NCBI GenBank assembly: GCA_050742015.1
Contig: JBOGEV010000039.1
Coordinates: forward strand, 660-64,659
Length of the DNA: 64,000 nt
Origin: Acidimicrobiia bacterium
GTDB lineage: Bacteria > Actinomycetota > Acidimicrobiia > Spongiisociales > ZC4RG35
Reading direction: 5' to 3'
A program made the translations under genes and the position numbers. This document shows positions 18,822 to 63,494 of this stretch, piece by piece (positions within the stretch are counted from its first letter, which is position 1; each line of letters begins with the position of its first letter). The notes under the pieces were generated by a model. That model was given only the letters and a program-made list of their open reading frames with translations. It was not told where the DNA came from and did no database searches.

Positions 18822-21775
18822 GGGAGGTAGGCGCCTTTTCCCTCGGCCCAGGCCGGGCATGAGAGGCGGAAGTCGCAGTTCTTGCAACGCTCGCTGACTC
18901 TGGGCTCCCACCTCTCGTCCCTGATCGACTCGGTCACATCTTCCATGGTCTCGGCCACTTCCGACAGCAGGTCGAAGTCGAGCTTCCGGGTGACCACCGC
19001 CTTTCCCTTGGCCCGGGGAAACCACATCTCGGCGGCTACCACCGGCTCACCGGTCTCCTCGGCCACCGCGGACGCGTAGAAGGCGAGCTGTACCGACCGA
19101 TTGGCATCCGCCACCGCGGTTGCGGTCTTCGATGTCTTGTAGTCGATGACCCCGAGACCTGCGTCATTTCTCTCCAGCCGATCGATCACCCCCACCCACT
19201 CGACCCCGCCGATCTCGGTCTTCACCCGCTTCTCCACGTCGACCGGCATACCGCTGCCCGGCCATTCCTCGTAGAGCTTGACGATGCCCTCTCGCGCCTG
19301 GCGGAGCCAGGCTTCGTTGAGCTGGGGTGTCCCGAAGTCTGCTGTGGCCCACACTCTTTCCAGATGGCTGAGCGCCGTCGATAGGTCGGCATGGGTGGAG
19401 CCGGTGCCGATGATCTCGCGCTCCGCCCCCTCCAGGGCGGAGTGAACCAGGGTGCCCAAAGCAGCGTATGGGGAGTTGGCGTCAGTGAGCCGCAGTCTTC
19501 GCTCCAGGGCGTAGCGCCGGGGACATGAGGCGTACGAGTCGGCCTGGCTCGGTGACAGTCTGAGGGTCGGCCCGAGGATGGGCCGATCGGGGCCGGGCTC
19601 GGGCACACCGGCAAAGGCCATCGGATTCCACCACTTGCCGGGGGGATGGGCCAGGAGGTGGGCGGAGGCGAGACGCTCGACGCCGGCAGCTCCCGGGTCG
19701 AGCAACGCCCTTCTCAGCCCCACCTCCGCCTCGCTGAGCGATATCGGAGGCCCGGTGATCTCCTCGGGCGGCCCCAACGGGCCGTCGCGGCCGGGATCGG
19801 CGGCGGCCAGAAGGAATCGGGAGGGGCGGTGCTCACCCTGATCGACTCCGGCCGAGGTCGCGGTCCAAACCACCTTGGACTTCGCTCGGGTCATCGCGGT
19901 GTACGCCAGCCGCATCTCCTCCTGCACCTGGAAGAGATGCTGTGCCTCAGAATCGGTGGTTCGCTCGGGAGAGAGCAGCTCGGGTCGGAGCATCCTCCGG
20001 CCCCGTCTCAGATCGGGGAATACACCCTCGACGGCGTTGGCGATGTACACCACCTCGAATTCGAGCCCTTTGGCCTGATGCAAGGTGGTGAGCGTCACCT
20101 GCTCTTCGGTCGGCCGATAGGGAAGCAGGGGAGTCGACTCGATCCCCTCCTCGTCGGTGAGGGCGAACACCCGATCCAGGCTCACCTCGGGATCACGCTC
20201 GGCTTGGCGCTCCAGGACCTGGGAGAACGAGGTGAAGGCCAGCCGCCATCCCTTCCGCTCCGGATCGAGGACCACCCGGTCCAGCTCGTCGATGTGGGTC
20301 CAGATGTGCCAGAAGCCGTCGATGGCAGGAAGCGACGTGCACCATTCGTCGTTATCGAGGAGTGTGGCGAGACCGGGGTGCTCGGGGAGTTCGCGGGTCA
20401 GCACGGTCGGCCACGCGTCCCAGCTCCGGCGTCGGGAGCGGAGCACCTCGCGCTCCTTGCCCAGACCGATGCCGACCAGCGGGCCCAGCAGCAGACGTCT
20501 CATCGCCCGGTCGGCCTCGGCTGCCTCCACCGGCGTGAGCAGGGGAATCGGGCCACCGAGCTTGGCGGCGGTCACCATGTCCTGGATCATTCGCACAGCC
20601 GGGTGCTCGACCAGACGCGCCTGCGGGGAGTCGTGCGGGACACCCTTCCGGGTCAGGGCCCGGCTCAGCTCGTTCAACATCTCGCGCTTGGAGCGGACCA
20701 AGACCGCCATCGTTGACGGCTTGCGGCGTTCCACCCTGAGCTGGTGCTCGATGTCACGGGCAATCCATTCCGCCTCGGCCGTCTCCTGGTCGAACACGTA
20801 GGTCTCAACCCTCCCGGTGTGGGCCGCCGGGCTGACGGGGCCGGCCGCGCCGGGAAGCTCGCCGGTGGACACGATGCGGAGCGCGGAATCCAGGATCTCA
20901 GCCGGAACCCGAAGACTCCGCTCCAGCACGATGCGCCGGGAATCGGCGTGGTCCTCGGTGAAAGCGGCGATGTTCCTCAGCTCGGCCCCACGGAAGGAGT
21001 AGATCGACTGGTAGGGGTCGCCGGCGACTACGAGGTTGCCGTGGGGGCGGGCCAGCAGCCTGGCGATCTCGGCCTGAACCGGTGACGTGTCTTGGTACTC
21101 GTCGACCACTACGTAGTGGTATTGCCCGGCAAGCTCCTGTCCCTCGGGGGTGCCGAGGAGCGTGGCCGCCGAGACAAGGAGGGTGGCGTAGTCGGTGCGG
21201 CCCGACTCCTCCAATGTGCGGCGATAGCGGCGGAACAAGCCGGGGATGCCCTTCCAATCGGCCCGAGCCGCCGCCTTCTCGTCCAACTCGTCAGGCGAGA
21301 GCATTCGTTCGGAACATCGCATCATGAAGTCGGCAACCTCGGCGGCAAACGCGGGTGTGGCCAGGATCCCCCGATACATGACGGGCCACCCATCGGGCTC
21401 CTCGGTCGCCAGGAGATCTCCCACCAGTCCGATCTGCTCCGGCGTGGTGAGCGGAATCGGTCGCTCCGACTCCGGGCCTGCTTCGAGGAGACGCAGGGCC
21501 AGGGAATGGAAGGTCGAGGCGCCGATAGGCATGCCCGAGCCGCCCAACGCCAGATCAACCCGGCGCCGGATGTCGGCGGCAGCCCGTCGGGAGAATGTGA
21601 GCACCGAGATCTGATCCCGACGAGCCTTGCCGGTCTCGATGAGAAGGCAGAGACGCCTGACCAGGAACTCGGTCTTCCCGGTGCCGGGCCCGGCCACCAC
21701 GATCTGGGCGCCCTCGGTGTCGGCGAGAACGTGGTCCCAGTCGTCCGGATCGAGCCGGATCTCGTTCACTGGCAC
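18818..21775 (-). CDS. adnA: UvrD-like helicase / RecB-like nuclease subunit (AdnA-like)
   Basis: Walker A GPGTGKTE, VVDEYQDTSP. C-terminal nuclease module with CKNCDFRLSC. First gene of the helicase-nuclease pair, as in the mycobacterial adnA-adnB order. Confidence 0.8.
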   Translation of the reverse strand: MPVNEIRLDPDDWDHVLADTEGAQIVVAGPGTGKTEFLVRRLCLLIETGKARRDQISVLTFSRRAAADIRRRVDLALGGSGMPIGASTFHSLALRLLEAGPESERPIPLTTPEQIGLVGDLLATEEPDGWPVMYRGILATPAFAAEVADFMMRCSERMLSPDELDEKAAARADWKGIPGLFRRYRRTLEESGRTDYATLLVSAATLLGTPEGQELAGQYHYVVVDEYQDTSPVQAEIARLLARPHGNLVVAGDPYQSIYSFRGAELRNIAAFTEDHADSRRIVLERSLRVPAEILDSALRIVSTGELPGAAGPVSPAAHTGRVETYVFDQETAEAEWIARDIEHQLRVERRKPSTMAVLVRSKREMLNELSRALTRKGVPHDSPQARLVEHPAVRMIQDMVTAAKLGGPIPLLTPVEAAEADRAMRRLLLGPLVGIGLGKEREVLRSRRRSWDAWPTVLTRELPEHPGLATLLDNDEWCTSLPAIDGFWHIWTHIDELDRVVLDPERKGWRLAFTSFSQVLERQAERDPEVSLDRVFALTDEEGIESTPLLPYRPTEEQVTLTTLHQAKGLEFEVVYIANAVEGVFPDLRRGRRMLRPELLSPERTTDSEAQHLFQVQEEMRLAYTAMTRAKSKVVWTATSAGVDQGEHRPSRFLLAAADPGRDGPLGPPEEITGPPISLSEAEVGLRRALLDPGAAGVERLASAHLLAHPPGKWWNPMAFAGVPEPGPDRPILGPTLRLSPSQADSYASCPRRYALERRLRLTDANSPYAALGTLVHSALEGAEREIIGTGSTHADLSTALSHLERVWATADFGTPQLNEAWLRQAREGIVKLYEEWPGSGMPVDVEKRVKTEIGGVEWVGVIDRLERNDAGLGVIDYKTSKTATAVADANRSVQLAFYASAVAEETGEPVVAAEMWFPRAKGKAVVTRKLDFDLLSEVAETMEDVTESIRDERWEPRVSERCKNCDFRLSCPAWAEGKGAYLP

Positions 21776-21790
21776 GTAACGATCGTAGGG

Positions 21791-21928
21791 TCAGGCGGCC
21801 TCGGGGAGACGCCCGATCACCTCCACCAGCTCGGCTTCGATGCCGTAGGTGGAGAGGTAGACGACAGGGTCGTCGAATGGGTCGAGGGCGGGCTCCGTCT
21901 CTCGTTCTGCTCTGGTGAAGTAGCTCAT
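21791..21928 (-). CDS. possible small acidic protein (45 aa) upstream of adnA
   Basis: MSYFTRAERETEPALDPFDDPVVYLSTYGIEAELVEVIGRLPEAA. Ends 15 nt before the adnA start. No clear RBS and no family recognised. Confidence 0.3.
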   Translation of the reverse strand: MSYFTRAERETEPALDPFDDPVVYLSTYGIEAELVEVIGRLPEAA

Positions 21929-21987
21929 AGGAGACAAGCTATTTGCCGGGTGTGACAGAAACCCCTTGGAGCGTCCCAACGCATAGG

Positions 21988-23295
21988 ATGAGAGAACGTG
22001 CGTCTACTGGAACGGAGGTCTCGGTGACCACGGTGGTTGGCAACGAATTCGACTCGCCGATGTACAAGGAGGCCGCCGGGCAGTTCGACCGGGTGGCAAG
22101 GTTGATGGGGCTCGACGACAACGTCGCGGACCGGCTTCGCGTGCCTCAGAAGTCGACGATGGTCAGCTTTCCCTTTCGCCGCGACACCTACTCCGAGGTC
22201 GAGACCTTGTTCGGCTACCGGATACAGCACCTGACCACGATGGGCCCGACCAAGGGCGGGATTCGCTTCGCCCCCGATGTGGACCTGGGCGAGGTGGCCG
22301 CCCTCGCCATGTTGATGACCTGGAAGTGCTCGATCGTCGGTCTCCCCTTTGGCGGCGCCAAGGGAGGGGTGCGGGTGGACCCGATGGGTCTTTCCCGGGC
22401 CGAGCTGCAACGCGTGACCCGCCGATTCACCATGGAGATCATCAATGTCATCGGCCCGGAGACCGACATCCCCGCCCCTGACCTCGGGACCAACGAGCAG
22501 GTCATGGCGTGGTTGATGGACACCTACTCCCAACATGTCGGGCACTCGGTCCCTGCGGTCGTCACGGGAAAGCCGCCGGCCCTCGGTGGCAGCGTGGCTC
22601 GACGCGAGGCGACCGGGCGGGGACTCATGTTCCTCGTCCCCCAGGCCGCCGGTGTCCGCGAACTGGACCCGAATGAGCTCACCGTCGCCATCCACGGTTT
22701 CGGCAATGTGGGCCGCTACGCCGCGATCGCTGCGCATCAGATGGGGATCAGGGTTGCAGCGGTCTCCGACATCTCGGGCGCCCTGTACGACCCCGAGGGA
22801 TTGGAGGTCGAAGCCGTGGCCAAGTGGGTCGACGAGAACCGGTTCCTCGAGGGGTACCCGGATGCCGACTTCATCGACGGGGACAAGATCTTCAGTCTCC
22901 CCGTCGACGTGCTGGTGCCGGCCGCAGTCCAGAACGTCATCCGAGGTGACAACGCGGGCGAGATCGAGGCCAAGATCATCATCGAGGGAGCCAATGGCCC
23001 CACCACCATCGAAGCGGACGAGATCCTGAGGGAGAAGGGGGTGCTGGTCATCCCCGACGTCCTCGCCAACGCCGGTGGGGTGACGGTCTCCTACTTCGAA
23101 TGGGTTCAGGACGTCCAGAAGTACTTCTGGACGGAGAACGAAGTAGTGGCTCGGCTCCGGGAGATCATGACCCGTGCGTTCAGCGACGTGCACAACATCG
23201 CCATCAACGAAGACGTCGACATGAGAACCGCAGCCCTGATCAAGGGCATCCGCAAGGTGGCCGACGCCAAGTTGGTTCGAGGCATCTTCCCCTAG
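21988..23295 (+). CDS. gdhA: Glu/Leu/Phe/Val-family glutamate dehydrogenase
   Basis: Catalytic region GPTKGGIRF and GLPFGGAKGG, NAD(P) fold HGFGNVG. Start uncertain (ATG 21988 or TTG 21943). Confidence 0.9.
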   Translation: MRERASTGTEVSVTTVVGNEFDSPMYKEAAGQFDRVARLMGLDDNVADRLRVPQKSTMVSFPFRRDTYSEVETLFGYRIQHLTTMGPTKGGIRFAPDVDLGEVAALAMLMTWKCSIVGLPFGGAKGGVRVDPMGLSRAELQRVTRRFTMEIINVIGPETDIPAPDLGTNEQVMAWLMDTYSQHVGHSVPAVVTGKPPALGGSVARREATGRGLMFLVPQAAGVRELDPNELTVAIHGFGNVGRYAAIAAHQMGIRVAAVSDISGALYDPEGLEVEAVAKWVDENRFLEGYPDADFIDGDKIFSLPVDVLVPAAVQNVIRGDNAGEIEAKIIIEGANGPTTIEADEILREKGVLVIPDVLANAGGVTVSYFEWVQDVQKYFWTENEVVARLREIMTRAFSDVHNIAINEDVDMRTAALIKGIRKVADAKLVRGIFP

Positions 23296-23302
23296 TGGGC
23301 GA

Positions 23303-24088
23303 CTAGGCGTCGCTGGCCCACGCGGGGCAGATCTCCTTGAACGAGCACCAGTTGCACAGGGTCCCTGGTCGGGTGGGGAAAGTCCGGGTGGCCAGGGCGC
23401 GATCGATCGCATTCCACAGGGCACGCAACTGGGTGTCCATGGCGTCGAGTTGGCGGTCGTCGATATCGAGCCGGTAGATGGTCGGGCCGTTCAGGTACAT
23501 GAGCCGAAGCTCTTTGGGAGTCTCACCCGTGCCGCGTCGGATGAGCAGGGCGTAGATCTTCAGGGCGAAAAAGGCAGGGAGGGCGTAGCGCTCCGGGGGT
23601 GCCTTGCCCGTCTTGTAGTCGGTGATGATCAGACGACCGTCCTCGTCCCGGTCGATTCGGTCGAGGATCCCCCTGATCGTGATGCCATCCAGATCCTCCA
23701 ACATGTCGAGCTCGCGGTCGACCGGGTCGAAGCCGGTGGGGTCCTCGATACTGAAGTAATTGGCGAGGAGCTCGAGAGACTCCACACCCCACTGCCTCTC
23801 TTCTTCGATGCCCTCGAACAGCGCCTCGAACTCCTCGCTTCCCCGGAGCTCCGTCCACGCCTCACGGAACAAGTTGTAGAGAAGCTCCGGCGATCGGTCC
23901 TGCGATGGGTGATCGAAAAGCCGCTGCAGGGCGAGATGGGCGGTTGTTCCCCGCGCCTGGTAGACCGATGGCGGCTCGCTGAGGCGGTCGATGGCCCGAA
24001 ACTTGAACAGTTGCGGGCAGGTCTTGAAGTCTCCTGCCCGACTGGGGGAGAGGGTCTCCAAAGGCGCAAGTTCCAGTTCTACGGTCAC
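23303..24088 (-). CDS. RecB-family PD-(D/E)XK exonuclease (Cas4-like fold, stand-alone)
   Basis: N-terminal Cys (FKTCPQLF), nuclease core (ITDYKTGK) and C-terminal CNWCSFKEIC cluster. Confidence 0.8.
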   Translation of the reverse strand: MTVELELAPLETLSPSRAGDFKTCPQLFKFRAIDRLSEPPSVYQARGTTAHLALQRLFDHPSQDRSPELLYNLFREAWTELRGSEEFEALFEGIEEERQWGVESLELLANYFSIEDPTGFDPVDRELDMLEDLDGITIRGILDRIDRDEDGRLIITDYKTGKAPPERYALPAFFALKIYALLIRRGTGETPKELRLMYLNGPTIYRLDIDDRQLDAMDTQLRALWNAIDRALATRTFPTRPGTLCNWCSFKEICPAWASDA

Positions 24089-24133
24089 GATGGCGAGTGT
24101 AAGTCGGGGGTGTGACAGGAAACGGGAGATCGA

Positions 24134-24769
24134 TCAGATAGGCCGCCAACGCAGCCAGAGCTCGGCGGCCGCGGCGTGAATCACGAAGGCGAGCCAGAAG
24201 GCGAGCCCGAATGCTTCGTCGAAGTCGAGGACGCCCAGAGCTTCGAACAGCGCGACCCACAGCCTGATCGTCCCAACAGCCAGACCTACGGCGAAGGCCC
24301 TGAGCATCCATCTCCGGTGCCGCACTGTGTCCCCGGCCCTGACCGACCGGTATGCCATCAACAGGGCGAGGATGAAGTAGATCCCAAAGATCACTGAAGC
24401 GCTGGCTTCGGCGAAGCCCCCGAAGGAGAAAAAGAAGCCGAAGATGATGGCGAACACGCCGGTCAGCACCCCGGTCGGGACCAGGATCCGGCCCATCCTT
24501 CGATGGAGGCCGAGGTGATTGTTGCGAAACCGGCGCGAGATCTGGAACGGGGCCATCACCAAATAGACCACGCCCGGGACGATGTGGGCGTAGGCCAGCA
24601 CCGGCTGTTGGGCATAACGGCGATCAAACTCACCCTTGGGTGGGATCACGCCGGCGGCGAGATTGGAGCTGTCGTTGACTACCCGAATGACTACGAAGAC
24701 CAAGACCACCGCGATCAGGAAGAAGACCGTTCCCCAGGCCGCCGGGACCCTCTTCGGGGTCGTTTCCAT
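24134..24769 (-). CDS. DUF2306-like integral membrane protein
   Basis: Six predicted TMs with PFQISRRFR...HRRMGR pattern. Confidence 0.6.
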   Translation of the reverse strand: METTPKRVPAAWGTVFFLIAVVLVFVVIRVVNDSSNLAAGVIPPKGEFDRRYAQQPVLAYAHIVPGVVYLVMAPFQISRRFRNNHLGLHRRMGRILVPTGVLTGVFAIIFGFFFSFGGFAEASASVIFGIYFILALLMAYRSVRAGDTVRHRRWMLRAFAVGLAVGTIRLWVALFEALGVLDFDEAFGLAFWLAFVIHAAAAELWLRWRPI

Positions 24770-24785
24770 GCGGGAGGAGGGTAAA

Positions 24786-24859
24786 CGCGAAAAGATGCCC
24801 TACACCGCGAAAACTTGGCCCCCATTTGGCTTGACGGGTCGTGTGACGTTTCGTACCTT
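24786..24859 (+). promoter_or_regulatory. candidate promoter A: two CGCGAAAA boxes plus TTGACG-17-TACCTT
   Basis: CGCGAAAA at 24786-24793 and 24806-24813. A 17-nt gap to TTGACG (24831-24836). A 17-nt spacer to TACCTT (24854-24859). Same layout as promoter B. Confidence 0.45.
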
Positions 24860-24865
24860 GCGCTT

Positions 24866-25012
24866 ACCGACACGGGTTCGCCCGGGACGGGGAAGGAGAG
24901 ACTTCGGTCCCTCCGGATCGCCACCTGACCGGGGGCCCGCTTTCCCGGTCGCGTGGCACTGAGAGCCCCGAGAGGGCTTCGGCTTCGGCCAGAGCTTTCT
25001 CGGGGTTTCTCG
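24866..25012 (+). ncRNA. candidate orphan structured sRNA A (about 145 nt), family unknown
   Basis: Hairpins CGGG-UUCG-CCCG (24873-84), GGAGAGAC-UUCG-GUCCCUCC (24895-914), GACCGGG/CCCGGUC (24927-50) nested in GCCAC/GUGGC (24920-57). Terminal hairpin CCCCGAGA/UCUCGGGG (24966-25005) followed by UUUCU. No + strand gene downstream. Confidence 0.4.
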
Positions 25013-25071
25013 CGTCCGGGGGCCTTGTTGAGGGAGCCACCTCACAAGTGGCTCGTGGCACACGACACCCG

Positions 25072-26124
25072 TCACCTCAACTCATAGAACCGGAAAAAGC
25101 CGGCTTCGCCCACCGCGCGGAACCCGCTGAAGCCGGCCTCCTCGGCGTATGCCTGCAATATGGCCGGGCGCATCACGGTGCCGGTCCCGACCGACGGCTG
25201 CGAGGAGAGGCCGTCAGGAAGGCAGATCAGGATGCTGAACCCGTACATCAGCTTCTCGAGCTCGTCGCCCTCGCCGGTGAAGACTTCGCCGACTGCCTCG
25301 TCCATGATCACCACGACTCCGTCCGGTTCGACCATCCGGCGCATGGCTGCCAGCACCGGCACTGGCTGGGCCATGTCGTGGATGCACTCGAAGGCGACTG
25401 CCACGTCGTACCTGTCGTTGCCCGAGAGTGACACGATGTCGTCACCGCTGAAGGCCACCCGATCCTGCAGACCGGCCTCGCTCGTGTTCTGCACCGCCAT
25501 GTCGATCGACGGAAGGTCGACGTCGAAGCCGCGAAAGGTTGCTTCTGGATAGGCCCGGGCCAGAGCGAGGGTCGACCACCCGGCACCGCACCCGATGTCG
25601 GCCACGCGGGAACCGGGCCGGATCAGCAGCTCGTGGACCGGACCCAGGCCAGCGAAGATGCCGGCCAGATCGTTGTCGAAGAACGGCCGGTTCATTTCCG
25701 CCTGGCTCTCCCGCATCTCCTGACCGAACGAGTCCCAGGAGACACCGCCACCTGACCGATATGCCTCCAGCAGGAGGCCCATCCTCTCGCCGGCGGTGGT
25801 GAGCATACGGGCGAGTGGTGCGAGATATGACCCGCTCGCCGGGTCGGCCAAGACTTCACGGTGAGTGTCGGGGAGGGAGAACACCGGTTCGTCACCGGAG
25901 AGATCGACCTCGACGATGCCGTAGGTGGCCTGCTGTTCCAACCACTCGCGGGCATACCGCTCGTCGATGCCGGTCTCGACGGCAAGACCCATGCTCGTCC
26001 TGCCCTCTGGGATCATGGCCCGGTACAGGCCGAGTCTGTCTCCGATGTGGATCGAGTACGTCTCGGCGGCATTCAATGCCGATGCGAAGACTCGATCGGC
26101 GAATTCCTCGACTGTGGCTGACAT
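25072..26124 (-). CDS. class I SAM-dependent methyltransferase with N-terminal winged-helix domain
   Basis: SAM motif I VADIGCGAGWSTLALA, acidic loop GFDVD. RBS GGGAGG upstream of the ATG at 26124. Confidence 0.85.
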   Translation of the reverse strand: MSATVEEFADRVFASALNAAETYSIHIGDRLGLYRAMIPEGRTSMGLAVETGIDERYAREWLEQQATYGIVEVDLSGDEPVFSLPDTHREVLADPASGSYLAPLARMLTTAGERMGLLLEAYRSGGGVSWDSFGQEMRESQAEMNRPFFDNDLAGIFAGLGPVHELLIRPGSRVADIGCGAGWSTLALARAYPEATFRGFDVDLPSIDMAVQNTSEAGLQDRVAFSGDDIVSLSGNDRYDVAVAFECIHDMAQPVPVLAAMRRMVEPDGVVVIMDEAVGEVFTGEGDELEKLMYGFSILICLPDGLSSQPSVGTGTVMRPAILQAYAEEAGFSGFRAVGEAGFFRFYELR

Positions 26125-26177
26125 TGTCTCTCCCTCCCAACCGCGGCGCCCTGACCGAACCTAGCCCAGATCTGCCT

Positions 26178-26252
26178 CGCGAAAACGAGGCTGAGCCTCG
26201 CGAAAAACAATCAGCCTGTGGAGTTGCCGCCTCGGGGCGGGATGTCTACGTT
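26178..26252 (+). promoter_or_regulatory. candidate promoter B: two CGCGAAAA boxes plus TTGCCG-17-TACGTT
   Basis: CGCGAAAA at 26178-26185 and 26199-26206. A 17-nt gap to TTGCCG (26224-26229). A 17-nt spacer to TACGTT (26247-26252). Confidence 0.45.
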
Positions 26253-26257
26253 TCCGA

Positions 26258-26623
26258 CCACGCCGCAGGGGAAACCCGGCGGCGGACCCGAACCAAGAGG
26301 TGCGGAGTGGTGAGAGCCACACCGAGGCCGTGGAGCGGGTACCCGGAGCCACTGGGAAACCGAGGGCGCCGGGGACGATCGGAAGATCGGACGGGGATCC
26401 TTCGGGATCGTCGAGCGGTTTTTCGGACGGCGGGTTTCACGACCCGCAACAGCTTCTCGGAGACGAGGAGCAGCGATCTTCGGATCGCACCCAGCCGGCG
26501 GCTTCGGCCATCGGCAGGAACTCCAATCGGAGTTGGGTCCCCGGCCCGACACCGACTGGACGAGAGTCCCGAGAGGGTTGCGGCTTCGGCCAAGGCTCCC
26601 TCGGGACTTTCTCGTTTTTTTTT
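26258..26623 (+). ncRNA. candidate orphan large structured RNA B (about 365 nt), family unknown
   Basis: At least nine local hairpins with GNRA (GAAA, GGAA, GAGA) or UUCG loops. Possible long-range GGACCC/GGGUCC pairing (26284-89 / 26535-40). Strong intrinsic terminator with T9. No credible CDS in any frame and no downstream + strand gene. Confidence 0.5.
26562..26623 (+). terminator. rho-independent terminator of RNA B
   Basis: GAGA-GUCCCGAG...(inner GGC-UUCG-GCC)...CUCGGGAC-UUUCUC hairpin followed by nine T (26615-26623). Confidence 0.75.
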
Positions 26624-26909
26624 GTGCGGGGGGGCGACCCCCCTGCACCCCCCGCTCGGGGCCGGGTCCGTCCGTCCGCTCTGAACCGGGTCAACAAGGG
26701 GGACCCGTACAACGCGTCCACGGCCAGGCCCACGCGTCTGCCCTGACCTGTGTGATTGTGCGGGGGGCGACCCCCCTGCACCCCCCGTCCGGGGCTAGGC
26801 CCACGCGTCTGCTCTGAACTGTGTGATTGTGCGGGGGGCCACCCCTGCACCCCCCGTCCGGGCTAGGCCCACGCGTTTGCTCTGAACCGGGTCAACAAGG
26901 GGGACCCGT
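26624..26909 (+). repeat. tandem array (3 units) of a G/C-run palindromic repeat family, locus 1
   Basis: Cores GTGCGGGGGGGCGACCCCCCTGCACCCCCCGC at 26624-55, 26758-87 and 26829-56. Shared modules CGCGTCTGCTCTGAA and CCGGGTCAACAAGGGGGACCCGT. Unit lengths 134 and 71 nt. Confidence 0.85.
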
Positions 26910-26966
26910 GACACCTGGCAGTTGTTCACCGTCGTCGGCTGACCGAATCCTGGTCCGCCCGGGGAG

Positions 26967-28274
26967 TCAGATCGGCCAGATCTCGGTTTGGCGGCCGTCG
27001 AGGAACTCAGGCCTCACCCCGTCGAACCAGGCGTTCTCCTCGAGCATGATCCGGACCGGGTAGTTGTCCCACTCCGGGACCGGCGACTCGGCCATCAGTT
27101 CGATGGACCATGCGGTGTCGGCGACCAGCTGGCGGTCGCCTTCCCCCGGGACGCCGTCCTGTCGGTCCCAGAGACCGATGGTTGGCCCGGCGCCGTGTCC
27201 ATGAAATCCGATGGGGTGGGTGTAGACCTTGCCCAGGATCGCCTCGTACGTGGCCAGATCCAGCGTTGCGGAGAGCACATCGTTGCCGGTGCGCCCCAAC
27301 TCGAAATTGTCGAGGAGGATGTCCTGCAGGCGGTTGGCGATGGCCAGGGCCGCCTTCAGTCCCTCGGGCACTTGGGCCTCGCGGTCCTTCAGCACGTACC
27401 CGTGCTGTTGCTGATCAGAGCACAGAGCGTGCCACACGATGCCGAAGTCGATGTGGACCAAGTCGCCTGGCTCGATGGTCACCGCTCCGGGGTGGCTGGC
27501 CAATGAGCCGCGCAGGTCCCCGGAGTGCCGTTGCGTCGAGACAGTCGGATGGAACCAGACTTGGGTGCCCAAGTCCTGGACGGCATCCCTGAGCCACCAC
27601 TCCACGTCGTGTGTCGTCGTGAGACCGGCATCGATCACCTCAGATGAGAGAGCCCGTCTGAGCAAGCCGTGGGCAGTGGCGCAGGCCTCGGCGAGTGTCG
27701 ACCGCTCCTCCGGGAGCCGGGTCTCCAGCCATCCCACGCTCAGATCTTCACCGGGCACCAAGCGGGCGGACAGAACTGGGCCGAGAGCTGCGACCAACGT
27801 CTGGTGCTCGGTTTCGGTCAAACCGTCGCCGTGTGCGAAATGGGTCGAGGTGTTGACCGCGATTTGCCTCGGGTCCCGCTCCCGGATCAAGCCTGCGAGA
27901 GCCTTCATTTGATCCGGCTCGGCGTCGGTATCCCACCGGGCAGGAAACAGGCCGTCGACTTCGTAACGGGACACGGCGGCTCGATCGACGCCTTCTGACA
28001 TTCGAAAGAAGACGAGGATGGTGCGTCGACGAGAGGTGATCCAATTCGCCGGGAGCATGGTCAACACCACCGGGTCATCGGCGTACTCGCGGGAGAGGAG
28101 GACCCAGCAGTCGATGTCGGCGTGGTCCATGAGGCGGGGCACGATTGTGTCGAGCCGTCTCCTCGTGGTCCGGTCGCGAGTCTCGGCCGAGACACGCAGG
28201 TTCAACTTCGGGATCACCGCAGAATCCTGCCACGCCGGCCTGCGAAGGGATAACCCCGATCGGTAGCCTGGCAT
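26967..28274 (-). CDS. M24-family metallopeptidase (Xaa-Pro aminopeptidase/creatinase-like)
   Basis: Pita-bread metal-site pattern VHIDFG...HPIGFHGHG...IELM. The start may be the GTG at 28217, because the 28274 start leaves only 2 nt to the divergent gene. Confidence 0.8.
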   Translation of the reverse strand: MPGYRSGLSLRRPAWQDSAVIPKLNLRVSAETRDRTTRRRLDTIVPRLMDHADIDCWVLLSREYADDPVVLTMLPANWITSRRRTILVFFRMSEGVDRAAVSRYEVDGLFPARWDTDAEPDQMKALAGLIRERDPRQIAVNTSTHFAHGDGLTETEHQTLVAALGPVLSARLVPGEDLSVGWLETRLPEERSTLAEACATAHGLLRRALSSEVIDAGLTTTHDVEWWLRDAVQDLGTQVWFHPTVSTQRHSGDLRGSLASHPGAVTIEPGDLVHIDFGIVWHALCSDQQQHGYVLKDREAQVPEGLKAALAIANRLQDILLDNFELGRTGNDVLSATLDLATYEAILGKVYTHPIGFHGHGAGPTIGLWDRQDGVPGEGDRQLVADTAWSIELMAESPVPEWDNYPVRIMLEENAWFDGVRPEFLDGRQTEIWPI

Positions 28275-28276
28275 GC

Positions 28277-28888
28277 ATGCGATACCCAGAGAAGCTGCTC
28301 AGCCCCGGTGAGGAGATCAAGGCCCAGTTCAGGCCACACTGGTCGCGGATCGCCAGGGAGGGGATTCTCTCGATTCTCGTACTGGTGTTGATCGTCCTGA
28401 TCGCCACCCAGGGCTTCAGCGGGGGCGGCTGGGTGATCGTGGGCTTGATCGTCGCCTGGTTCGTCGTTGTGATCGCCGAGTTCATCCGGTGGTGGACGAC
28501 CCAGCATGTGATCACCACCGAGAGGGTGATCCACCGGATGGGACTGATCTCCAAACAGGGCAAGGAGATCCCACTCGAGGTGATTAACGACGTCGCCTTC
28601 AAGCAGTCGGCCTTCGAGCGAATCTTCGGGACCGGGGACCTCCTCATCGAGTCGGCCGGTACCCATGGTCAGACCCGCTACAGCGACATCCCCGAGCCGG
28701 AGGCGGTGCAGTCTTTGATCTATCAAGCCCGGGAGGATCGCCAGGTAGCCCTCGAGTCCGGCCTCAGGTCGACGGCGAGCGAGAGCCCGGCGTCGCAGCT
28801 GGCCACCCTGTCACGACTCCACGACGAGGGGAAGCTCACCGACACCGAGTTCGAAGCAGAGAAACGCAAGCTGCTCGGGGACGCCTGA
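28277..28888 (+). CDS. membrane bPH (YdbS/DUF304-like) domain protein with C-terminal SHOCT domain
   Basis: MRYPEKLLSPGEEIKAQFRPHW..., two TMs, PH-like core. C-terminus LATLSRLHDEGKLTDTEFEAEKRKLL is a SHOCT motif. Confidence 0.75.
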   Translation: MRYPEKLLSPGEEIKAQFRPHWSRIAREGILSILVLVLIVLIATQGFSGGGWVIVGLIVAWFVVVIAEFIRWWTTQHVITTERVIHRMGLISKQGKEIPLEVINDVAFKQSAFERIFGTGDLLIESAGTHGQTRYSDIPEPEAVQSLIYQAREDRQVALESGLRSTASESPASQLATLSRLHDEGKLTDTEFEAEKRKLLGDA

Positions 28889-30498
28889 TGCCGCACATGC
28901 AGGACGACTTCCCGCTCAACCTCTCCACCCTCTACGACAGGGCGGTCTGGCTCTACCCGGACCAGGAGATCGTGTCGGTCGAGTCGGACCGATCGTTGGT
29001 CCGCACCAGTTACGGCGCGACCGATGCCCGGGTGCGCCAGTTGGCCACCGCATTCCGGGACCTGGGGCTCTCGCCGGGTGAGCCTGTGGGGACATTCGCC
29101 TGGAACAACCGCCGTCATCATGAGCTGTACTGGGCGACGGCCAACACGGGTCTCGTCTGTCACACGATCAACATCAGGCTCTTCGCAGACCAGATTGCCT
29201 ACATCGTGAACCACGCCGGGGACCGGGTGATTTTCGTCGACCCCGACCTCGTCCCGCTCCTGGCTCCGATCGTCGGTCAACTCGAAACGGTGGGGACCTA
29301 CGTGGTCATGGGGGCGTCGGCGTCCGATGCCATCCCCGGGTCGATCGCATACGAGGACCTCATCGGCGACGCCGAAGAGCACGGCTCTTGGCCCCAACTC
29401 GACGAGCGTTCCCCGATGATGTTCTGTTATTCGTCGGGTACCACGGGCAATCCCAAGGGCGTGGCTTACACCCAACGCTCGACTTACCTGCACACCATCT
29501 CCAACCTGGCCAACTTCGCAATGCTCCCCACCGACAACGTGCTTCCGGTGGTCCCCATGTTCCACGCCGCGGCGTGGGGCTACCCGTTCATGGCCGTGAC
29601 CCAGGGGGCCAAGCTCACCTATCCCGGCCCCGATCTCACTCCGCAGGGTTTGGTCCCGCTGCTGGAGAATGAGAAGGTGACGTTCAGCGCCGGCGTTCCC
29701 ACCGTCTGGCTGGGGATCAAGCAATACCTCGAGGCCCACCCCGAAGCCGACCTGTCGTCGATCCGGGCTTTCCTCTGCGGTGGTTCGGCAGTGCCCAGGG
29801 CCATGATCGAGTGGTACTGGACCGCCAAAGGGATCCGCGTGGTGCAGGGCTGGGGGATGACCGAGACCAATCCCGTGGCGTCGATCAGTGTCCTCAAGCC
29901 GGAGATGGAGGATTGGGACCTGCAACGACAGCTCGATTTCCTCGAGACCGCCGGTGTCCCCGCGCCCGGCCTGGAGGTCAAGATCGTCGACGAGATCGGC
30001 GAGGAGCTTCCCCACGACGGGGAGGCGTTCGGCGAGCTGTTGATCCGCGGCCCCTGGATCGCGGCCGAGTACTACAAGGACACACGCTCGGCCCAGTCCT
30101 TCGAGGAGGGCTGGCTGCGCACGGGTGATGTGTGCAAGATCACACCCGAGGGATACATCAAGATCACCGACCGGGCCAAGGACGTGATCAAGTCGGGCGG
30201 GGAGTGGATCTCTTCGATCGACCTGGAGAACGCCCTGATGGCCCATCCCGACGTGGCCGAGGCCACCGTCGTCGGCCTCAAGCACGTGAAGTGGCAGGAG
30301 CGCCCGGTTGCGTTCGTGGTAGTGCTCGAGGGTGCCGAGGTGTCCGAGGCTGATCTGCTCGGATTCCTCGAGGATCGGGTCGCCAAGTGGTGGCTCCCGG
30401 ACCGGATTCTCTTCATCGATGAGATACCGAAGACAGGCACCGGCAAGTTCGACAAGAAAGTGGTCAGAACCGAATACGCCGACCTGTTGATGGAATAG
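28888..30498 (+). CDS. fadD: long-chain fatty acid-CoA ligase (AMP-dependent synthetase)
   Basis: AMP-binding motif [20 protein letters not shown]-terminal lid with PKTGTGKF. Confidence 0.9.
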
Positions 30499-30523
30499 CG
30501 GACGCCTCGAGAGGAGGCCACCA

Positions 30524-30904
30524 ATGCTGAATCGGTTCAGGGTCTATGCGGTCCTGCCCTCGACCGACCTGGAACGAGCGAGGGCCTGGTACGAGGACAA
30601 GCTGGGGATGACTCCCGACAAGGAAGACCCGGGTGGTCTCTGGTATCAGTGTGCCGAGGGGACCTGGCTGTTTGTGACCAGAAGCGGCTACGCCGGCACG
30701 GCACAAAACACCGCGGCGTCTTTCCAGGTGTCCGGAATCGAGCAGGTCATGGCCGATGTGCGGGAGCGTGGCGTCGTTTTCGAGGAGTACGACCTCCCCG
30801 AATTCAAGACGGTCGACGGGCTTTTCTCCTCAGGGCCCTATCGGGCAGCCTGGTTCAAGGACATCGACGGGAACATCATCGAGATCTCAGAGGTCATCGA
30901 GTGA
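30524..30904 (+). CDS. VOC/glyoxalase-family protein
   Basis: About 126 aa, with the C-terminal [13 protein letters not shown] strand typical of VOC folds. RBS GAGGAGG upstream. Confidence 0.75.
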
Positions 30905-30950
30905 ATGTCGATTTCGGCTGCCCTCGACCTCCCAATGGGGTCGGCTGAGC

Positions 30951-31241
30951 TCAGATCCCCTTGGGGCGGAAGACGAAGGACATCCCGTCGTCCCCCCGAC
31001 TTACGTCCATCACCGCCGCTGACAGGGGCTCGGCCACCTCGGGGTCGATATACATCTCTGTGCCGGACTGTTCCGTGACCTGATCAGCGTCGTCGGGACT
31101 TTCGACGAATTCGAGTCGGACTTCGAGATCGCCACCGGGCTTAAGGCCGCCGGTCAATCTTGTGCCGTGGGACTCGGGGATCCCCTCATTGCGACGGATG
31201 TTGTCCAACGCCGCTGCGGCGCTCTCGGTCAATTCGAGCAT
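30951..31241 (-). CDS. HesB/IscA-like protein lacking the conserved cysteines
   Basis: MLELTESAAAALDNI...LRLEFVESP...MYIDPEVAEPL has the IscA-fold pattern, but there is no C-terminal CGCG motif. Confidence 0.5.
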   Translation of the reverse strand: MLELTESAAAALDNIRRNEGIPESHGTRLTGGLKPGGDLEVRLEFVESPDDADQVTEQSGTEMYIDPEVAEPLSAAVMDVSRGDDGMSFVFRPKGI

Positions 31242-31351
31242 TGCGCACTCCTTGCGTGGGCTCCCTTTCCACCATAGGCAGCCCCTCAGGTTTTGCACAC
31301 CGGGTGGCCCTCAGGGCCGGTCAATCGCTTCTGGGCGTGCCCTCCCGGTCT

Positions 31352-33289
31352 TCACCGCCCGTCGGTGCTCTCCGATTCCGTGACGACGCCCCGATCGGCG
31401 CGATTCGACCGTCGTGCCCTGACCGCGGGGAGCACCTTGAGTTGCAGCACCTGCTCACGATGGCGCTCCTCCTCCAGCATGCGGCCTCGGGCATGGAGCA
31501 GGTCGAACTGGGTGAGCAGCCCCACGAGTTTGTCCGGGGCTCCGCGTTCGACCACAGGCAGGACCCCGAGCTTCGCGTCGGCCATACGGTCAGCAACCAC
31601 TCGCAGCGTCTCGTCTCCGAACGCGACGAGCACCTTGCGATACATGACGTCATCCACGACTCCGCCGAGCTCGCCGCGCGATGCTCGCTCCAGCACGTCG
31701 TTCCACGGCAGCACTCCAACCATGCTTCCCGCCGCGGTCGTAATGGGGAGCAGTCGCTGATAACGCATGCCGGATCGTTCGAGCACCATGCGGTAGACGT
31801 CTTCGAGGCGGCTTCCAACCTCGACCGTCAACACCTCGGTTGCCATCACATCGCGGACGAACAGCACCTCCAGCGGCCCGACCTCGTATTGACGTAGGAC
31901 ATGGAATCCGCGACGGGCGACCTTTTCGGTGAGTATCGAGCGTTTGAGGATGAGGACGCTCACCAGGTAGGAGACCATCGCCACCAGGAGGAGGGGCATC
32001 AGAACCTCGACATCGTGGGTCAACTCGAGGGCGAACACCACTGATGTGAGTGGTGACCGCATGACCCCGGCCATCACCGCCGTCATGCCCATCAGGGTCC
32101 AGAATCCTTGAGTGGCGGAGGGGAGTAACGGGGTCAGGAGACCGCCAACCGAGCATCCCATTATGAGGATCGGGGCCAGAATGCCGCCGCTCGTGCCCGA
32201 GCCCAAGGCGACTGCCCATATGACCAACTTGACCAGGAAGATCGACGCCAGGGCTCCGATGGCGAGTTGGCCGGCGAGCTGGTCGGCGATTGTCTCGTAG
32301 CCCACCCCCAGCGCGCGGGGCTCGATCAATCCCCCGATACCAACAACCACTCCGCCGATGGCAGGCCACCACATCCAGTGCACGGGCAACTTCTTGAAGG
32401 CGTCCTCGGCTCCATACACGGCGACGGTCAAGAGCCATGCGGCGCCCGCCCCGGCGACACCGATGAGGAGCGCACCCATGAACGGGCCGAATCCCCGTGC
32501 CAGATCGATGTCGGCAGGGAACAAGGGCTCGACGGGGAGGAGGCTCCAATCGGCGAGGACCATCCTCAGGGCTTCGGCCACTGCAGCGGCGATACCGATC
32601 AGGACCAACGACCGTGGTTTCCACTCGAAAACCAGGAGCTCGACACCGAGGAGGACAGCGGCCACCGGTGTGCCGAAAACGGCGGCCATGCCTCCGGCCG
32701 CCCCGGCCACGAGGAGGCTCCGTCGTTCCGAGGCAGAGAGGTGGAAGAACTGGGCCAGCACCGACCCCAGCGCCCCGCCGGTCAGGATGATCGGTCCCTC
32801 GGCGCCGAACGGCCCACCCGACCCGATACTGACCGCGCTCGAGATCGGCTTGAGGGCAGTCAGGCGAGGCGCCACCTTGCTCCCTCCGACGAGGATGGTC
32901 TCCATCGCCTCCGGGATGCCATGACCACGGATCTGCTCTGACCCGTATCGGGCCATGACACCCACAATCAACCCACCGACCACGGGGATCGCGATGGAAA
33001 TGACACCAAGTGTGTTGTCGGCGGGCGATACCTGGTCCAGCGAGAACCGCTGGAAGTAGAAGAGATTGGTCAGGAGGTTGATCATGGCGAGGAGGACGAG
33101 GGCGACCCCCGCCGAGATGGCTCCGATTACGGCCGCGAGCGGCACCAGACGCAGTACCGAGACCGGGGTGGTGAAGTCGCCCAGCTTGCGCTCACCGCCG
33201 AGGGCGCCTCGAGTGTCCTCGCCGAACACAATGTCGGTCGGTAGCTCACGTTCGTGCAGGGGCGGCTGATCTTCGGGTGTGGGGCTCAC
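31352..33289 (-). CDS. ClC-family chloride channel/antiporter with C-terminal tandem CBS domains
   Basis: GSGIPE-like GHGIPEA, GGPFGAEGP and GTSGGILAP selectivity motifs. Two CBS repeats at the C-terminus. GTG start. Confidence 0.9.
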   Translation of the reverse strand: MSPTPEDQPPLHERELPTDIVFGEDTRGALGGERKLGDFTTPVSVLRLVPLAAVIGAISAGVALVLLAMINLLTNLFYFQRFSLDQVSPADNTLGVISIAIPVVGGLIVGVMARYGSEQIRGHGIPEAMETILVGGSKVAPRLTALKPISSAVSIGSGGPFGAEGPIILTGGALGSVLAQFFHLSASERRSLLVAGAAGGMAAVFGTPVAAVLLGVELLVFEWKPRSLVLIGIAAAVAEALRMVLADWSLLPVEPLFPADIDLARGFGPFMGALLIGVAGAGAAWLLTVAVYGAEDAFKKLPVHWMWWPAIGGVVVGIGGLIEPRALGVGYETIADQLAGQLAIGALASIFLVKLVIWAVALGSGTSGGILAPILIMGCSVGGLLTPLLPSATQGFWTLMGMTAVMAGVMRSPLTSVVFALELTHDVEVLMPLLLVAMVSYLVSVLILKRSILTEKVARRGFHVLRQYEVGPLEVLFVRDVMATEVLTVEVGSRLEDVYRMVLERSGMRYQRLLPITTAAGSMVGVLPWNDVLERASRGELGGVVDDVMYRKVLVAFGDETLRVVADRMADAKLGVLPVVERGAPDKLVGLLTQFDLLHARGRMLEEERHREQVLQLKVLPAVRARRSNRADRGVVTESESTDGR

Positions 33290-63203: not shown

Positions 63204-63220
63204 TGCGGGCCTCTTGCTTT

Positions 63221-63494
63221 GTGCGGGGGGGCGACCCCCCTGCACCCCCCGCCTAGGTCAGACCTCCACGTGTGCCCTGAATCGGGTCGGCGAGGTTTCC
63301 CCGCGCCGTTCTCTATGCGGGGGGCGACCCCCTGCACCCCCCGCCTGGGGTCGGGCCTCCGCGTCTGCTCTGAATCGGGTCGGCGAGGTTCCCCGCGCCG
63401 TTCTCTATGCGGGGGGGCGACCCCCCTGCACCCCCCGCCTGGGGTCGGGTCTCCGCGTCTGCTCTGAATCGGGTCGGCGAGGTTCCCCGCGCCG
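63221..63494 (+). repeat. tandem array (3 units, 92-96 nt period) of the same G/C-run palindromic repeat family, locus 2
   Basis: Cores at 63221-52, 63317-44 and 63409-38. Each is followed by ...CGCGTCTGCTCTGAATCGGGTCGGCGAGGTTCCCCGCGCCG. Same orientation as locus 1. Confidence 0.85.

Follow-up and report, generated by a model that had tools for sequence, protein, structure and literature searches.

The 64,000-nucleotide stretch of an Acidimicrobiia bacterium analysed here (assembly GCA_050742015.1, C39:660-64659; the whole of it is called the window below) carries two neighbouring units, A and B, each consisting of a tandem pair of CGCGAAAA boxes, a promoter and a predicted gene for a hairpin-rich RNA. 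A and B are members of a family that has three genes in the genus and two in most other families of the order, and that is confined to this one order of uncultured Acidimicrobiia. The boxes also occur outside the RNA units, namely at dnaB and dnaA and, in another arrangement, at nrdJ. Very probably, a regulator co-controls the three RNA genes together with replication genes, and the RNAs represent an order-wide family of stand-alone structured RNAs. An earlier, sequence-only reading of the window had described A and B as a duplicated, co-regulated RNA family with paired sites two helical turns apart, a view that was supported and extended by a third paralogue (unit C) on another contig.

The host genome (3.4 Mb, 65% G+C, 344 contigs, 98% completeness) was analysed together with 30 genus-mates, giving a genus set of 31 genomes, and compared with six other families of the order. 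The search for box pairs followed by TTG was controlled by the same pattern read backwards in the 31 genomes, and a two-box weight matrix was trained on 60 instances from relatives. Consensus folds were evaluated by the percentage of cells paired and the number of pairs with compensatory change, using slid alignments as controls. The 5′ and 3′ ends of RNAs A, B and C are predicted positions throughout.

The window contains exactly four copies of the word CGCGAAAA, always on the forward strand and always as part of the two tandem pairs (Table 1), as the sequence-only reading had it. Dinucleotide-shuffled versions of the window contained 1.14 such words on average, and a count of four was reached in 4 of 100 cases, so that the bare count is only mildly unusual and weak evidence; it is the arrangement of the boxes, rather than their number, that carries weight. 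Direct reading confirmed the layout of box, 17 nt, TTGnCG, 17 nt and TACnTT in both units, with a start-to-start distance between the boxes of 20 bp in unit A and 21 bp in unit B. The expectation of a conserved spacing was also borne out: across the genus and six further families of the order, the sequence drifts between the elements but not in the boxes, the two hexamers or the 17-nt distance, and this combination of drifting spacers with fixed boxes and hexamers is the footprint of functional promoter elements. For instance, the hexamers of the unit A promoter are kept in the relatives around a variable spacer, and the unit B promoter of the relatives reads TTGCC(A/G)...TAC(G/C/T)TT. The unit A promoter was left unflagged by a promoter scan that is tuned to E. 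coli. Unit C follows the same plan, with the layout CGCGAAGA-N12-CGCGAAAT-N17-TTGCCG-N18-TATGGT.

Across the genome, the CGCGAAAA word is found 43 times, but exact pairs with a gap of 12–13 nt are found only three times. Two independent loose patterns (one for the proximal box plus promoter, the other for a loose pair) led to the same four promoters, to which the loose pair added one more, and the two-box matrix gave five sites a score of 30–36, with the next best at 19.6. These five sites are the pairs of the RNA units, dnaB and dnaA. The pair-plus-TTG pattern had 2–6 matches per genome in the 31 genus genomes and the reversed control had 0 in each, i.e., the genome-wide count that the sequence-only reading had proposed as a check places the pair far from random. 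A further pair, CGCGAAAA-N17-CGCGAAAT, is present at C97:22804-22836 (boxes at 22804 and 22829), 34–59 nt upstream of an opposite-strand LysM-domain gene; it has a spacing of 25 bp and no sigma-A promoter after it, and was rejected as another site of the family.

The third exact pair of the genome lies before dnaB (C292:44590) in the layout N17-TTGTGG-N17/18-TAAGTT, followed by a leader of ~115 nt, and both the pair and the highly conserved leader were present upstream of dnaB in all 15 relatives fetched. The top-scoring pair of the genome (C292:13312, reverse strand) is situated in the rpmH-dnaA spacer, upstream of the row of DnaA boxes, and is likewise kept in relatives. Upstream of nrdJ, one forward box at ~-315 and one inverted box at ~-200 were seen in 7/7 of the genus-mate regions read, with the inverted box ~35 nt upstream of a TTGACC -35 element. 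The control region of nrdJ as a whole (C118:43900-44233) contains the convergent CGCGAAA boxes, a DnaA-like box (TGTGGAWAAC), the TTGACC promoter and, within the leader, a tandem of two NrdR boxes. The dnaB leader (C292:44668-44781) has two repeats (CUUCCCCGC, or CUUCCCC), for which alternative pairing with one GGCGGGG is possible. It further contains a hairpin with UCUUG after it and a third copy of CGCGAAAT, and it looks like an attenuator or another type of regulatory leader.

Two direct CGCGAAAA repeats on one face of the DNA, with centres at ~-56 and ~-77, would constitute a fixed-distance site for a sequence-specific DNA-binding protein, and the position of this site suggests an upstream activator of a class I-like type. 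Phased upstream A-tracts stimulate promoters, and the A4 tracts of the boxes, spaced by 20–21 bp, lie on the same side of the helix upstream of the -35 element, so the pairs might instead be intrinsic to the DNA and, with no protein involved, strengthen promoters as a bend, as phased A-tracts or as an UP-like element. We regard this as very doubtful: the CGCG part is conserved equally with the A-tract, in all five classes and across the order, the proximal A-tract (-56 to -53) takes up little of the classical UP element (-59 to -38), the boxes of nrdJ are conserved in inverted orientation and far from the -35 element, and the whole 3.4 Mb contains only five pairs, all at functionally related genes.

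Several known actinobacterial regulators control replication genes by transcription (MtrA, WhiA/WhiB2, NrdR and the autoregulation of DnaA), and the present case resembles them in that a small set of replication genes shares one cis-element, with direct repeats upstream of a sigma-A promoter. It differs in that RNA genes are among the best sites here, and neither the CGCGAAAA motif nor its spacing agrees with any of these systems. MtrA, whose targets are dnaA, dnaB and rpf genes, recognises two repeats of 7 bp separated by 4 bp (PMC11215152), a site unlike the CGCGAAAA pair. WhiA and WhiB2 control dnaB and dnaE1, and WhiA binds GACACGCC / GACAC(GCC) (PMC13473873); a WhiA site at the RNA starts was rejected, as the GACAC of unit A, which belongs to a covarying stem, is not retained among the relatives. 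The NrdR box is a 16-bp palindrome (acaCwAtATaTwGtgt type) with centres ~31–32 bp apart, while CGCGAAAA is non-palindromic and repeated at 20–21 bp, and the actual NrdR boxes (CCACnACATCTTGTGG-like, in tandem) are separate and downstream of the nrdJ promoter. The DnaA box (a 9-mer of the TTWTNCACA type) also differs from CGCGAAAA, and boxes of the TGTGGAWAA / TGTGGAWAG type sit beside the CGCGAAAA boxes at dnaA and nrdJ. No second protein with a DnaA domain IV that could read the boxes was detected in the genome by tblastn. In the full-text literature searched, no description of the CGCGAAAA element or of a dnaA/dnaB/nrdJ regulon in actinobacteria was found.

The consensus folds of RNAs A, B and C are serial hairpins with UUCG or GNRA loops. 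In the alignment of RNA A (fold z = -3.85), 99.0% of the cells were paired as compared to 32–60% in the slid controls, with 5 compensatory pairs; the corresponding values were 98.0% vs. 34–54% and 18 pairs for RNA B (fold z = -8.56), and 98.2% vs. 33–53% and 16 pairs for RNA C. RNA B is 71–87% identical in all genus-mates with a complete locus, and its 3′ portion of ~220 nt is nearly invariant within the genus. The distance from the -10 element to the shared 3′ module is 108 nt in unit A (106 nt in two relatives), 113–115 nt in unit C, and 311–334 nt in unit B (315 nt in this genome), except for two species with a 5′ deletion, in which it is 224 nt. The distance in B thus exceeds that in A by 207 nt, near the difference of about 220 nt between the two bodies that had been read from the sequence. 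The CCGAC element previously noted at the start of both transcripts turned out to be the 5′ strand of the first hairpin in A and C, which covaries (CCGAC/GUCGG, CCGGA/ACCGG, CCAAA/GUUGG); it is no feature of the family as such, since unit B of relatives reads GCCCGCCACGCCG or TCCACCCACGCCG there. A scan of metagenomes with the invariant core of unit B retrieved 45 contigs, all > 1.4 kb and none of the size of a transcript.

Units A, B and C end in a homologous module of ~55 nt. Among 34 distinct copies from the three units, its core is invariant (CCCGAG paired to CUCGGG, next a position with A·C or A-U, and finally GGG), and the base pairs on either side of this core covary. When 61 genomes sampled from the order were searched with a covariance model of this module (R1), 60 had matches at E <= 0.001, usually 2–5 per genome, some of them being one hairpin read from the opposite strand; elsewhere in the class, matches were weak and mostly single. 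Nearly every genome of the genus-mates has three copies of the module, while two RNAs are usual outside the genus. The sequence-only reading had taken the ends of A and B for homologous terminators, and of this the homology stands (covariance model, E ~1e-20 to 1e-22). An intrinsic (Rho-independent) terminator would be a GC-rich hairpin with a U-run directly after it. The hairpin is present in all copies, with a sequence conservation that goes far past the needs of a terminator, and the T-run is found in B only: a run of nine T follows the module in unit B of this genome, where a terminator-like site was predicted at 26602-26614, and units A and C as well as the relatives are without a U-run beyond a UUUCUC that is paired inside the stem. 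Because the core is invariant across the paralogues and the order, more than a terminator requires, we infer a sequence-specific partner for the module.

Searches against Rfam 15 gave no match in the whole window at the gathering threshold and none in positions 20000-32000 at E <= 1, with a chance miRNA match elsewhere; the classes without a match include 6S, Ms1-like RNAs, transfer-messenger RNA (tmRNA), RNase P, signal recognition particle RNA, riboswitches, raiA, OLE and ROOL. A divergent tmRNA was rejected, as tmRNA sits elsewhere in the genome and the folds are unlike it. Two tmRNA genes were found by ARAGORN, and their slightly different tags (AEDNFALAA / ANDNFALAA) in a metagenome bin of 344 contigs suggest a strain mixture or mild contamination.

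The main rival to the preferred reading is that these RNAs are the RNA polymerase (RNAP)-binding RNAs of the lineage, i.e., functional analogues of 6S, Ms1 or CoRP that would be abundant and would sequester the RNAP core or holoenzyme. They do share with these the character of structured, stand-alone actinobacterial RNAs of 150–500 nt, with RNA B (~360 nt) within the size range of Ms1 and CoRP, and here they are Rfam-negative RNAs in a genome without a recognisable 6S (no RF00013 match in the 98%-complete genome, even at E <= 1). According to one proposal, an abundant RNA associated with RNAP exists in every bacterial species, one per species, and some of these RNAs will look unlike 6S or Ms1 (PMC11077062). 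Ms1 has been searched for in Actinomycetia only (PMC9130861). We nevertheless consider this rival unlikely. A 6S RNA is expected to be a rod of ~180 nt with a large central bubble between long helices, whereas in A, B and C independent hairpins follow one another, with no long closing helix and no central bubble. An Ms1 RNA would bind the RNAP core and would be expected in a conserved synteny with an HAD-IB hydrolase and an oxidoreductase (PMC9130861); this synteny is absent at this locus, where the neighbours are DUF2306, PD-(D/E)XK nuclease, methyltransferase and M24 peptidase genes. Moreover, there are three paralogues of very unequal length that share a 3′ module and have only their ends in common, and the co-regulation with dnaA and dnaB suggests growth-linked rather than stationary-phase expression, if the site is that of an activator.

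The arrangement is instead similar to that of sibling small RNAs (sRNAs), such as RsmX/Y/Z with the GacA upstream activating sequence, CsrB/CsrC, GlmY/GlmZ and Qrr1-5, which are separately transcribed, hairpin-rich paralogues of varied length with the same upstream site at a fixed promoter distance, similar terminal hairpins, and RNA genes among the best-matching sites of the genome. Of the features by which such a family is recognised, those that can be read from sequence (at least two paralogues with their own promoters and the same site at the same spacing) were found here for three predicted genes, with boxes, distance and hexamers kept in 31 genomes. In contrast to these siblings, the promoter is of the sigma-A type and the site is common to dnaA, dnaB and nrdJ. 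A sponge of the CsrB/RsmZ type was rejected: no CsrA or Hfq homologue was detectable in the genome (best tblastn E = 0.2; CsrA queries from E. coli and B. subtilis), and there is no repeated GGA-loop motif, the loops being UUCG or GNRA.

According to the preferred reading, each RNA gene would be transcribed separately from its own sigma-A-type promoter into a stable, hairpin-rich non-coding RNA, under the control of a protein bound to the box pair, probably as an activator rather than a repressor. The RNAs probably belong to a small replication-centred regulon, because the same element is found before dnaB and upstream of dnaA, and single boxes at nrdJ. Each RNA would open with a hairpin (covarying in A and C) and end in the shared hairpin of ~55 nt, which would stop transcription and protect the 3′ end, and could at the same time be the common handle for a protein partner. 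The variable bodies, arrays of hairpins, suggest protein-binding or scaffold RNAs over base-pairing ones. Duplex energies of the whole RNAs A and C with the dnaA, dnaB and nrdJ leaders were, in a crude scan, no better than those with 600 random 5′ regions. The invariant linker of RNA A, CGGGGAAGG, is complementary over 8–9 nt to CCUUCCCCG in the dnaB leader, around the repeated CUUCCCC; this match is a lead only, as the chance expectation is ~0.25 per comparison of such size.

A number of points weigh against this reading. The dnaA pair has no clear -10 element after it in the clade of this genome, and the boxes at nrdJ are single, convergent and ~113 bp apart, so that they share the word while differing in geometry; the sites may thus not all be served by a single protein in the same mode. 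The transcription of the RNAs, their ends and their abundance are predictions, and the shared boxes are the only thread that would connect the RNAs with replication. A protein that binds the box pair is most likely, and it is deduced from the site itself. Termination at units A and C is assumed, the hairpins there being without a U-run.

In a bolder version, a master regulator of the chromosome replication cycle in this order would have the CGCGAAAA pair as its operator and the three RNAs as its main effectors or feedback arm. Acting perhaps as decoys or scaffolds, the RNAs could use the invariant 3′ hairpin to titrate the regulator itself, DnaA, or some other protein of replication or repair. 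The presence of RNA genes among the best sites, a conserved Cas4/RecB-like nuclease and adnAB by unit A, and the match of CGGGGAAGG to the dnaB leader are compatible with this version and do not show it, and we hold it to be quite improbable; if true, it would mean an RNA layer in the control of bacterial replication. Even in the more modest form, two to three structured RNAs that match no catalogued RNA family are present throughout an order, and an undescribed cis-element ties them to dnaA, dnaB and nrdJ. Acidimicrobiia are abundant in soil and water and regulation in them is almost unstudied, while the control of replication-gene transcription in Actinomycetota is only recently being worked out (WhiA/WhiB2, MtrA); a dedicated regulon with RNA genes among its best-matching sites would be a new arrangement. 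The system also offers two handles, i.e., a 30-bp DNA bait for the putative regulator and a 55-nt RNA bait for the putative RNA partner.

Table 1. Features of units A, B and C and of the genes around units A and B (positions in the window unless a contig is given; ends of the RNAs are predicted)
Feature	Position	Strand	Remarks
Unit A distal box	24786..24793	+	exact CGCGAAAA; centre ~-77 from predicted start; CGCGAAAA in unit A of 19/19 relatives
Unit A proximal box	24806..24813	+	CGCGAAAA, 17 nt before -35; centre ~-56; distance constant, intervening letters vary
Unit A promoter	24831..24859	+	TTGACG 24831-24836, 17 nt, TACCTT 24854-24859; actinobacterial sigma-A type
RNA A	24866..25013	+	~148 nt; four hairpins: P1 CCGAC/GUCGG, P2 with UUCG loop, P3, 3′ module
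3′ module of RNA A	24959..25013	+	long hairpin, invariant CCCGAGAGGG...GGCUUCGGCC...CUCGGG; model R1 E = 4e-20
Unit B distal box	26178..26185	+	exact CGCGAAAA; relatives read CGCGAAAA or CGCGGAAA
Unit B proximal box	26199..26206	+	CGCGAAAA, 17 nt before -35
Unit B promoter	26224..26252	+	TTGCCG 26224-26229, 17 nt, TACGTT 26247-26252
RNA B	26259..26620	+	~362 nt; array of ~10 hairpins, UUCG or GNRA loops
3′ module of RNA B	26560..26614	+	model R1 E = 2.7e-22; followed by T9 run
Unit C (third paralogue)	C161:19570-19809	-	RNA ~160 nt; other contig; same 3′ module
Cas4/RecB-like PD-(D/E)XK nuclease	23303..24088	-	Pfam PDDEXK_1; NCBIfam AddB/Cas4-like; next to adnAB
DUF2306 gene	24134-24769		parts the nuclease gene from unit A in this genome
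Rv2258c-like winged helix-turn-helix and class I S-adenosylmethionine methyltransferase	25072..26124	-	Pfam HTH_65 and Methyltransf domains; between A and B

The methyltransferase gene between A and B had been mentioned in the sequence-only reading as a possible, openly speculative functional partner of the RNAs, and this idea was refuted. A homologue lies between A and B in only 4/20 relatives, and the units do not always flank it: A and B are directly adjacent in five species, and longer spacers of 0.4–2.3 kb in others contain genes for DsrE and a pyridine-nucleotide oxidoreductase or for DUF222-HNH endonucleases. Two further relatives have the units in divergent orientation. The methyltransferase is a passenger in a variable spacer and outside the system, which removes a false lead. 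The spacer (25014-26177) resembles an insertion hot spot beside the 3′ end of an RNA gene, and no integrase was seen in it. On the other side, the nuclease is the constant divergent neighbour of unit A, as it was found by tblastn at 11/20 loci of the genus (with short flanks) and at 5/6 loci of other families.

Several copies per genome with shared ends, varied cargo at the 3′ end of unit A (including the DUF222-HNH genes) and a dispersed repeat family adjoining unit B could also be expected if the units were copies of a mobile or repeat element; alternatively, they might be cis-regulatory leaders or riboswitches of their neighbours. Either explanation is extremely improbable. The loci and the copy number are fixed across the order, with a conserved nuclease neighbour, and in every paralogue compensatory changes accompany purifying selection. 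For the leader variant, there is no Rfam riboswitch match in the window and no same-strand downstream gene conserved with the units, the methyltransferase and the neighbouring M24 peptidase genes being on the opposite strand. An extracytoplasmic function (ECF) sigma gene downstream of unit C was rejected as a regulated target, since it is kept in 1/20 relatives.

Divergent from unit C is a gene for a protein of ~93 aa (C161:19713-19857), with its start codon ~50 nt from the distal box, whose position is kept in nearly all genus-mates. It has no family match in Pfam or NCBIfam and was, for this reason, not retained as a candidate for the regulator. Directly after the T9 run of RNA B (26624-26909), and again at 63219-63405, G-run/C-run units form a dispersed repeat that resembles repetitive extragenic palindromes, with the core TGCGGGGGGCGACCCCCCTGCACCCCCC; ~21 copies of it are spread over the genome, mostly as groups of 2–3 (C145, C161, C222, C290 and others), and it is unspecific to the RNA locus.

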